NCBI GenBank assembly: GCA_022763045.1
Contig: JALEGI010000019.1
Span: 6,700 to 70,699, forward strand
Direction of reading: 5' to 3'
Length of the DNA stretch: 64,000 nucleotides
Origin: Simkaniaceae bacterium
GTDB taxonomy: Bacteria > Chlamydiota > Chlamydiia > Chlamydiales > JACRBE01
Shown here: one piece after another, positions 41,801-44,800 of the stretch
Numbering within the stretch: the stretch's first letter is position 1
Layout of the letters: the number at the start of each line of letters is the position of its first letter
Program-made: the position numbers

Positions 41801-44800
41801 GCCATGACCCTCAACGATTACAAGTTGCGCAACTAAATCTTCGAAGGAATAAGTTTCGATATCTCTTTCAAGGGCATCGAATTGCGCCTGATTGGCTAAA
41901 TAAAATTCGTGGCGGTGGTCGTTTCCAGTTTTAGCAGCGGCTAGGTTTTGACGAAATTCAGCAAGAGCTATTGGGTTTATGGGGGCTAATTCTGATGCCG
42001 TTCTCTTTAAATTGTGGATTGAAAGGAGAAGGTGTTCGATTGAACTATCTGGCTGATCGAGGGGATTGACACCCAGTTTTGTAGCAAGAGTTGAGGAGTG
42101 TCTCGCAATACTAGCTGGAAAGGCGAAAAATTTACTTAGGAGTCCTGAGACAAATCCAGGTTGATCTGGTTCTGGTGGTTGGAAAGGTGGTGCGGGAGGG
42201 GCGGGTTGAAGAGCTGCAGGTTCCATGATTGACACTCCTTGGTCAATTAGAGGGTAAAAGTTTATCTTTACTTAAGCTTTACTGGCAATAAAAATAAAAC
42301 CTTTACGCTTCCTGCTGGACTATTTTTCACAACTCAATTAATGTAATTTCTTATGGAATTACGCCGCTTACTTCCCATCGCGCTCGCTTTTTTTGCTTCA
42401 GGATACGCACAGTATGAAAAGCGTGCTCCAGTTGATAATCACTTTGCCATTGAAGCAGACTTTCTTTATTACGACCGCACTGAGTGTGATGATAATCGTA
42501 TTGCAGAATATGACCTCAATCATTGCGACATCTTTCAGCAGACTCTTTCGACCAAAGATGTCGCCCATGAGATGGCCGATAGTCCCGGTCTGCGCGCCTG
42601 CGTCTACTTTATGCCACACGCCTACCAAACCGTAGAGTTGCGCTACGTCGGTCTCCTTGAGTGGCACGGGACACGTCGCTTAGAAGATACCGCGGCCATT
42701 ACCTTCCCATTCAAGTTCTGTACTGTTGACTGGAGCCTTGCTGACCGGCTAAAGGCGCAATACTGGGCAAAATTCTACTCTGCCGACCTCATGTGGTGGC
42801 ACCATGTCAACCCACGCGACTCAACCTACTTCAATATTGGTTGGGCTCTAGGACTTCGTTATGCAGATATCGATGAGGAATTTGAGACCAATATCTACAA
42901 ATCTAACCGTCAATCGCTCTACGACATCAACACCCGCAACGATATGATGGGCATCCAAGGTGCCTTTGAGTTTTCCTGCCACCCCTACCGCTGGATTACC
43001 TGGGGCTTTACCATTCGCGCAGCTCTATATGCCGATGTTGAGACAGAAAAAACGCTACTCACCGATGACAATGGTTCGATCACGCTACGCAAACAGCAGG
43101 CCTCTGGCGTCCATGAAACGTGGTCGGGAGAAGCTGATATTTTCCTCAAACTCGACATCTACCCAACCGCTTCCATTCGCCTTGCCTATGATGCTCTTTA
43201 CTTCCGTAATGTTGCTGTCGCTGGTGATCAAATCCACTACTCTAAAGAGAAGATCCGCATGGACCATAACGGATCAGTTGGCTATTATGGACTTGAGGCA
43301 GGCCTCATCATCTTTTTCTAGGGGGGGCGTATCAGGGCACTGCATCTTTGCACCATTAACACCCTCAATTATTTGCCTCTCTATGTAAAGCCAGCATTTT
43401 CATAGCTTGTAAAGCGGCTTTACAAGCTAAATAATTATTTTAAAGAGTGTCAAAATTCTGCTGTATATGTATAATTGGGGCTGCCGGGGACCTTTTGTGG
43501 TATGGCCGCACGAACCAGGTCAGGATCGGAAGATAGCAGCCTTAAGAGCATCGCCGTATGCCTAAAGCCAATCTCCGGCTCTTTTTACAAATACTTTCCT
43601 GTTAGAGATTTTTTCGATTTGGCAATTTTCTCGGGTGTCCCGTGTGCCACGATTTTGCCTCCCTTTTCTCCCGCCTCTGGTCCAATGTCAAAGATGTAGT
43701 CCGAGCGCGAAATCACATCGAGATTGTGCTCTATGAGTAGCAGGGTGTGGCCTTTATCCACCAGTCGGGTGAAGATGTCGAGTAATTTGGCAATATCTTC
43801 AAAGTGCAATCCTGTTGTCGGCTCGTCAAAGAGGTAGAGCGTTTTTCCCTTCGGTCTGCGTATGAGCTCTTTGGTAAGGCGCAGGCGCTGAGCTTCACCT
43901 GCTGAGAGCGTGGCAACGCCGCGACCTAGCTCGAGATAGCCAAGTCCGATTGAGATGAGCGTTTCGCAGATGCGGGTAATTTTGGCAATTGGAGGGAGGA
44001 ATTCGAGCGCCTCTTGAATCGACATGCGAAGCACCTGACCTAGATTCTTCTCTTTATAGAGGACTTTACGGCTCAAGGGCGCGAGGCGATCGCCGTGGCA
44101 GGTTTCACAGGCGACCTCAACTGAGGGCATGTATTGCAGATCGATGGTTTGGTAGCCCATTCCCTGACACTTAGAGCACATCCCTTTGACGTGATTAAAT
44201 GAGAAGTGGCGCGGCTGCAGTCCGCGCATTTTAGCCTCGGGCAGACTGGCGTAAAAACTACGTAGCGGGGTGAGAAGATCTGTGTAGGTACAGACATCTG
44301 AGCGCTTGGTGTGGCCGATGGGACTCTGATCGATGGCGATCACAGAATCAAGCTCTTTTTGCATTTGTGGCTTGATCACTTCCATCATCAGTGTCGATTT
44401 TCCACTTCCAGAGACTCCTGTAAAGCAGGTCATGCGTCCGACGGGGATGTCTAGATCGAGGTTTTTGAGGTTGCGCAGTTTGGCTCCTCGCACTTCAAAG
44501 AATTCTTTTGGCGCTGGCCGTTTTTTGCGTTCAGGGAGCGTTTTTTCTCCAGTTAGGTATTTGCCAGTGGGGGAGTCTTTGATTGAGCCTTGAGAGAGAA
44601 TTTGTCCCCCTTGCACCCCAGCACCGGGGCCAAAGTCAATGACGTGGTCTGCCATCTGGATGGTCATTGGGTCGTGCTCGACTAAGATGAGAGTGTTGCC
44701 TGCATCGCGCATTCTTTCAAGGGCTTTGTTGAGCATGGAATTGTTGTGGGGGTGAAGTCCAATTGTCGGCTCATCTAGGATGTAGAGACACCCTGTCAAT

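Follow-up and report, generated by a model that had tools for sequence, protein, structure and literature searches.

A possible lineage-specific palindromic repeat abutting TAG stop codons in an uncultured Simkaniaceae bacterium

Background

Most GTAG-tagged REPs sit downstream of an ORF, whose TAG stop is often provided by the terminus of the repeat. Both single units and inverted dimers, the latter folding into long hairpins, are known, and such elements have been reported in the PVC superphylum (PMC3733652). The MITEs Correia (in Neisseria) and ERIC form hairpins in transcripts; the effects reported for them include cleavage by RNase III at the inverted repeats and, where they lie at the 3' end of a gene, altered stability (PMC10969869). 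Rickettsia palindromic elements (RPEs) are palindromic repeats of ~150 bp, found in an obligate intracellular bacterium, that preserve the host reading frame (PMC10969869). A search of the literature found no small palindromic repeat family described in Simkaniaceae.

Here we describe a G-rich motif that follows the TAG stop codons of two genes, dcd (dCTP deaminase) and a porin-like gene, in a 64-kb stretch of DNA from an uncultured Simkaniaceae bacterium (the whole stretch analysed, referred to below as the window). Judging from the sequence, we put it at about an even chance that both motifs derive from a single palindromic repeat, non-coding, lineage-specific and REP- or MITE-like in kind. 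The coordinates of the features are collected in Table 1.

Table 1. Features of the two motif-bearing loci (positions in the window)
Feature	Position	Strand	Remarks
dcd (dCTP deaminase)	8389..8961	+	190 aa as annotated at NCBI; ends ...AITPRI-TAG
CATC, left flank	8955..8958	+	directly at palindrome end
Full imperfect palindrome	8959..9091		133 nt; TAGAGAGGG...CCCTCTA
Left arm of palindrome	~8959-9018		
Copy 1 of motif	8970..9008	+	GGGAGGGGGCATCAGGGCGCGCCATCTTTGCACTATCAA; left arm, outer and middle portions
Loop of palindrome	~9019-9041		
Right arm of palindrome	9042..9091	-	third, more diverged motif copy, TAGAGGGGGGGGGCAGGGTGCTGTAGATTTGTGCTAACAAGAGGAGGGGT
CATC, right flank	9092..9095	+	directly at palindrome end
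Porin-like ORF	42353..43321	+	322 aa; signal-peptide-like N-terminus; C-terminal ...GLIIFF-TAG
Copy 2 of motif	43321..43359	+	GGGGGGGCGTATCAGGGCACTGCATCTTTGCACCATTAA; solo arm, no complementary partner
Perfect palindrome, 13-nt arms	43403..43429	+	A/T-rich tail; 44 nt downstream of copy 2
Sigma-70-like promoter of ffs	43447-43475		
SRP RNA (ffs)	43483..43582	+	downstream neighbour of copy 2

Results and discussion

Two copies of one motif at two stop codons

Repeat search and BLAST both align the two copies without gaps, with 31 of 39 bases identical and both on the plus strand. The first-pass annotation had reported a G-rich motif behind two stop codons, in the same orientation and equally placed relative to the stop; both sequences are present where it put them, and the copies begin 0–9 nt past the TAG of co-oriented genes. 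The first G of copy 2 is in fact the final base of the TAG that ends the porin-like ORF, while at dcd the stop codon (8959-8961) and the start of copy 1 are separated by 9 nt that form a further G-rich tract, AGAGGGAGG. Both copies lie within the first 10 nt of their intergenic regions, which measure 420 nt (dcd) and 161 nt (porin-like gene). Downstream of the G run 24 of 29 bases are identical (ATCAGGGC.C..CATCTTTGCAC.AT.AA), and because agreement continues in this way past the G run, the match is not a low-complexity artefact.

Could two such stretches resemble each other by accident? When the dcd intergenic region is compared with the window by BLAST, the pair has E=3e-5 and the runner-up E=5. 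In a comparison limited to the 25 intergenic regions (2,289 nt, with longest ORFs setting the boundaries), no two regions match better than this pair, whose score of 22 was reached by only 3 of 200 dinucleotide-preserving shuffles. When the whole window is compared all-versus-all without regard to position, the pair does not reach significance: it scores 23 there, and 3 of 30 Markov-shuffled windows score at least 23, the best scores across the 30 ranging from 18 to 25. The earlier judgement that chance similarity is less likely is borne out, with a smaller margin than it implied. It is similarity and placement taken together that make the case against chance. A 39-nt match at 79% identity is moreover too long for convergence, so that the two copies likely have a common origin, by duplication or transposition.

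Within the window the motif is confined to these two loci, if the diverged complementary arm of copy 1 is left aside. A profile built from the three arms found no fourth copy in the 64-kb window (the next best hit, E=0.58, lies inside ruvB), and no third instance follows any of the window's other 43 gene ends. The window is the DNA of the source organism that was examined, and the GTDB, JGI and other collections that were scanned exclude the source MAG. An 18-base core of the motif has 11 matches in 185,579 GTDB species genomes and 14 in JGI metagenomes; in both collections these are in unrelated taxa, none has the G run, and their number is at chance level. The core has no match in viral contigs, and no copy of the motif was found in plasmids.

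An imperfect palindrome begins at the dcd stop codon

Copy 1 is not free-standing. It lies in one arm, the left, of an imperfect palindrome of 133 nt whose right arm carries the motif in inverted orientation (the profile of three arms finds this right arm by nhmmer at E=1.5e-7, the right arm being itself a training member). A repeat finder delimits arms of 8974-9018 and 9042-9086 that are 71% complementary; read directly, the inverted symmetry extends further, from TAGAG (8959-8963) to CTCTA (9087-9091), giving imperfectly complementary arms of ~50-60 nt each. The palindrome is a short non-coding element with terminal inverted repeats and contains no ORF. Its GC content is 0.57 vs 0.46 for the window, and it is the most structured 140-nt segment in the window. 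The predicted RNA fold has a free energy of -68.9 kcal/mol (z -6.4) for the plus strand and -77.0 kcal/mol (z -5.9) for the minus strand, and the plus-strand DNA fold one of -31.1 kcal/mol (z -4.1). The antisense hairpin is more stable than the plus-strand hairpin by 8 kcal/mol; four A·C mismatches of the plus strand turn into G·U pairs on the minus strand. The 133-nt hairpin is not followed by a U-tract (its stem leads into CATCAATGCTTCC), and a terminator scan reports no site at 8959-9100.

The two CATC tetranucleotides are placed exactly where the inverted symmetry ends, an arrangement with a chance of 1/256 at that register, and possibly represent a 4-bp target-site duplication. If they are taken as such, the reconstructed empty site would be a dcd gene without the stop codon that its relatives have at that place.

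At the porin-like locus the situation is different. Copy 2 resembles the left arm alone, and the similarity ends at 43359-43360. It has no C-run with which to pair, its surroundings fold weakly, mainly into a different hairpin, and the sole stem inside the copy is a 4-bp TGCA...TGCA; no internal stem is conserved between the two 39-nt copies. Of the options raised at first pass, the evidence favours that of a half-copy of a palindromic element: copy 1 is the left arm of the 133-nt palindrome and copy 2 matches that arm only. The idea that copy 2 is a full element with an internal deletion, prompted by a right-end likeness (CACCCT...CCTCTCTA), was rejected, as 63% of shuffles equal that alignment.

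The perfect palindrome farther downstream is likely, from its sequence, to be the real terminator of the porin-like gene; ffs, the next gene, has its own promoter. The porin-like protein has no Pfam match.

The sites in related genomes

The order of dcd, a small ORF and CNNM genes is kept in three relatives, whose Dcd proteins are 83% (L012), 79% (L013) and 82% (L016) identical to that of the window and share its terminal residue. The spacer between dcd and the next gene is 208, 146 and 43 nt long in these genomes, respectively, vs 420 nt in the window, and all three spacers lack the motif. In L012 dcd likewise ends with TAG, which is followed by a small AT-rich hairpin. For the second locus we used L031, the nearest relative by UvrA (68% identical), which keeps the porin-like/ffs/uvrA neighbourhood and has an ortholog of the porin-like protein (42% identical, E=3e-103). 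There the spacer from the porin-like stop to ffs is 53 nt vs 161 nt in the window and again lacks the motif; the gene also ends with TAG, followed by a small hairpin (AGATGC-AATG-GCATCT). The motif is therefore absent from the orthologous sites in all four cases examined (three dcd loci and one porin-like locus), and no analogous element was found in these loci, the profile of three arms included. Since the orthologous sites are without the motif, both copies are either gains in this lineage or losses in every relative sampled.

As to its wider gene content, the window has a divergent ruvB/dcd pair, a double UvrA of 1,841 aa, ankyrin-repeat proteins and the SRP RNA. Its porin-like protein, Dcd and UvrA match proteins of a single Simkaniaceae MAG at NCBI with 100% identity.

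Comparison with described repeats

With an inverted pair at one locus and a singleton at the other, each directly at a TAG stop, the arrangement recalls GTAG-tagged REPs and their inverted dimers (REPINs/BIMEs). As REPs do, the copies lie in extragenic DNA downstream of an ORF, at or no more than 9 nt from its TAG stop. As for the tag, the right arm ends with CTAC (GTAG on the other strand), and two of the three tags, those preceding the left arm and copy 2, read CTAG. There are also differences. The tag is unpaired in canonical REP units whereas the TAGAG and CTCTA ends pair with each other here, and canonical units are stem-loops of 20-40 bp whereas the present arms, at ~40-60 nt, are not self-complementary. 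Canonical REPs have tens to thousands of copies, against two loci within 64 kb, and are often linked to a RAYT gene, of which there is none among the window's 46 ORFs.

MITEs would be an equally close analogue, by the features compared. Like them, the dcd element is non-coding, within the ~100-200 bp range, bounded by terminal inverted repeats and able to form a long hairpin in a transcript. This likeness holds for copy 1 only: the dcd element has in CATC a candidate short flanking direct repeat, and copy 2 has no definable right end. No parent IS or transposase of the element is present in the window, where a scan of 46 ORFs for transposase, RAYT or integrase domains found none.

With RPEs the pair shares that both copies are in frame with the ORF upstream and differ mainly at third codon positions. 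RPEs, however, lie within ORFs and are translated, whereas the copies here follow genuine TAG stops. Intrinsic terminators, finally, are similar in being GC-rich hairpins shortly past a stop codon, but the dcd hairpin has no U-tract and a far longer stem, and copy 2 forms no hairpin and is followed by a terminator-like palindrome of its own.

Several other identities were considered and rejected. The motif is not a tRNA or tmRNA fragment of the kind left at att sites, as ARAGORN finds no tRNA or tmRNA remnant in the window. Nor does it belong to a known RNA family: Rfam gave nothing at copy 2, and at the palindrome merely generic long-hairpin (miRNA-precursor) matches of 14-24 bits, vs gathering scores of 49-168. 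An integron attC site can be dismissed because the GTTRRRY / RYYYAAC cores are absent and dcd, a core gene, lies in a conserved gene order. A G-quadruplex is not a common feature, there being four G-tracts in copy 1 vs three in copy 2, and the frame of a small reverse-strand ORF starting at the conserved CAT does not agree with the variable phase. One stretch behind the TTC-TAG of ssb (32165-32290) looked like a third GC-rich structured element, but it codes for the S4-like N-terminus of an overlapping RluD-like gene. Other strong hairpins in the window (26641-26780 and 32121-32260) are unrelated to the element in sequence.

Alternative explanations

If the motif were instead a selected cis-acting element of the 3'-UTR, a core of ~30 nt (ATCAGGGC....CATCTTTGCAC) would be bound after the stop codon by a protein or a small RNA and would control the transcript end, stability or termination efficiency of both genes. 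We consider this unlikely, even though two unrelated genes carry the motif in equal orientation at a near-equal distance from TAG, the core is well conserved (24/29) without being of low complexity, and both copies are upstream of hairpins that probably end transcripts. The core is buried in a stem of -69 kcal/mol in copy 1 but single-stranded in copy 2; it has no third instance behind the 43 other gene ends, no Rfam match, and no counterpart at the orthologous sites of the four relatives. A shared role at the RNA level (in stability, as a transcript end or as a protein-binding site), as first proposed for the motif, therefore finds no support: a common function, at the RNA level or in protein binding, does not sit easily with a sequence that is locked in a hairpin at one locus and partnerless at the other, whose antisense folds better, which has no T-run (U-tract in RNA) after it and which is not conserved. 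Less probable still is that two G-rich stretches are alike by chance, one of the two being part of an unrelated hairpin by coincidence. The shuffled windows that score as high in the all-versus-all comparison are compatible with it, as is the fact that there are two copies only and that all 25 exact matches to the core in public genomes and metagenomes, in unrelated taxa, are themselves due to chance. What speaks against it is the rarity of such scores in shuffled intergenic DNA (3 of 200), the extent of the match well past the G run, and the coincidence of position, since both copies fall in the first 10 nt of an intergenic region after the TAG of a co-oriented gene (roughly 10/420 x 10/161).

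A further explanation is that the motif is translated. Occasional read-through of UAG would extend both Dcd and the porin-like protein by a shared peptide, GG[G/R]IRA[R/L]HLCTI[K/N], or the repeat would be adapted to translation as RPEs are; the predicted peptides are RGRGGGIRARHLCTIKSRGVR for dcd and GGRIRALHLCTINTLNYLPLYVKPAFS for the porin-like gene. Both copies are in frame with the ORF upstream, the difference in length between their G-rich tracts is exactly 9 nt and so divisible by three, and of the nine differences taken into account seven are at third codon positions and six are synonymous steps. This bias has a binomial P of 0.008 for the phase of the upstream ORF and of 0.025 for any phase. 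It is not predicted by simple neutral decay, and so is a point on which the repeat reading is less than satisfactory. Yet with nine sites and a post hoc test the periodicity may be due to chance, and it could equally go back to ancestral coding sequence, such as an IS whose transposase ORF ran into its end. TAG is moreover an ordinary, frequent stop in the window (14 of 45), the end residue of Dcd is unchanged in relatives, the two peptides part ways beyond residue 13 and end at different points, and the window has neither a suppressor tRNA (by ARAGORN) nor pyl genes. Read-through would also mask the Phe-Phe end of the porin-like protein. A terminal aromatic residue is the usual assembly signal of outer-membrane beta-barrels. 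We accordingly give translation of the motif very little credence, and the same slight weight to its specific form, in which a conserved in-frame peptide GG-x-IRA-x-HLCTI after UAG in two unrelated genes would be kept by purifying selection.

A repeat that docks onto stop codons?

To return to the palindromic repeat, the dcd locus would hold the complete element, 133 nt with the ends TAGAG.../...CTCTA and CATC flanks, and the porin-like locus a single arm of ~40 nt, as a decayed or truncated copy. Transposition or duplication would have made the copies after the split from the sampled relatives. Their placement at stop codons could result from the element's own end, which would include or regenerate TAG; as the genome has very little intergenic DNA, presumably only insertions that preserve ORFs would persist. 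The complete copy would give the dcd mRNA a very stable stem-loop a few bases past the stop, and this could protect the 3' end, undergo processing by RNase III, or impede terminating ribosomes. The solo arm is probably without function. Against the repeat reading it can be said that only one full and one partial copy are known, that neither the window nor the collections scanned yielded another, that the window's ORFs include no transposase, RAYT or integrase, and that the arms are not the short stem-loops of canonical REPs. The stop codon missing from the reconstructed empty site and the position-blind comparison, which leaves room for chance, also count against it. From its sequence features, the pair looks like an ordinary, lineage-specific repeat of the REP/MITE type rather than a demonstrated regulatory signal.

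The finding by itself is modest, and the in-frame, codon-periodic divergence of the copies is the sole feature that could raise its importance: if that divergence did reflect translation, it would mean that UAG read-through is programmed in an environmental chlamydia, or that this organism has a palindromic repeat that is coding-competent in the manner of RPEs. Should the full genome confirm a family, Simkaniaceae would gain a described family of small palindromic repeats. Such a family could serve as a marker of recent genome dynamics in a lineage that is obligately intracellular and poor in intergenic DNA, and would show in a concrete case how repeats can survive by attaching themselves to TAG stop codons.

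Repeats and protein matches around dcd

Two direct repeats lie in the dcd-downstream intergenic region, 3' of the palindrome at 8959-9091: CTCTCTCTGCGTCCTCTGTGGTAAAAAACAAC at 9114-9145 and CTCTCCTTGTGTTCTTTGTGGTAAAAAAAAAC at 9203-9234. They share 81% identity, with about 45 nt alignable and a spacing of 89 nt, and are missing from the shorter dcd intergenic regions of the relatives. A protein search with dcd also returned three 'Dcd' matches (P0002, P0005 and P0006) of 232-267 aa, all on contigs of <1 kb. Segments of Dcd are duplicated in these proteins, and one also has an intein-splicing domain match. 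All three look like chimeric assemblies rather than extended forms of Dcd.

Motif-like, palindromic and structured stretches

Within ruvB, a minus-strand gene, CGCGCGATCTTTGTGCAATC at 7671-7698, with GGGGGG just before it, weakly resembles the motif core CGCGCCATCTTTGCACTATC. The likeness is probably due to chance, since the match to the motif profile had an nhmmer E-value of only 0.58. The stretch directly 3' of the ssb TTC-TAG (32146-32290) has a GC content of 0.61 and is strongly structured, and it is coding: an RluD-like pseudouridine synthase has its apparent start at ATG 32146, overlapping the final 19 nt of ssb. Downstream of the porin-like gene there is a perfect palindrome (43403-43429), the core of which, TGTAAAGCGGCTTTACAAGC, is matched at 19 of 20 bases at 28538-28557, within an ORF at 28236-28730 (BLAST against the window, E=0.006). 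This likeness could reflect a common binding site or chance.

The porin-like gene and its neighbors

The porin-like ORF matched no Pfam family and seemed to be an orphan, as a word-indexed protein search returned only the ORF itself. A syntenic ortholog, 42% identical, is present at 6183-7151 of L031, a relative's locus with the same neighborhood. The porin-like protein may belong to a family of outer-membrane proteins specific to Simkaniaceae.

Compared with its counterpart in L031 (6031-6126), the nearest relative, the SRP RNA gene is inverted: in the window it runs in the same direction as the porin-like gene and converges with uvrA, whereas in L031 it has the direction of uvrA. Its flanks in the window carry no inverted copy of the motif. 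Internal duplications are seen in the DNA encoding UvrA, the halves being ~62-64% identical.

Coordinates of selected genes in the window
Feature	Position	Length
Eukaryote-like Ser/Thr protein kinase	2170-4755	861 aa
Ankyrin-repeat protein, adjoining the second	22433-24019	
Ankyrin-repeat protein, adjoining the first	24025-26670	
Porin-like ORF	42353-43321	
SRP RNA gene	43483-43582	
UvrA	43585-49110	1,841 aa

The kinase and the two ankyrin-repeat proteins are candidate host-interaction effectors.
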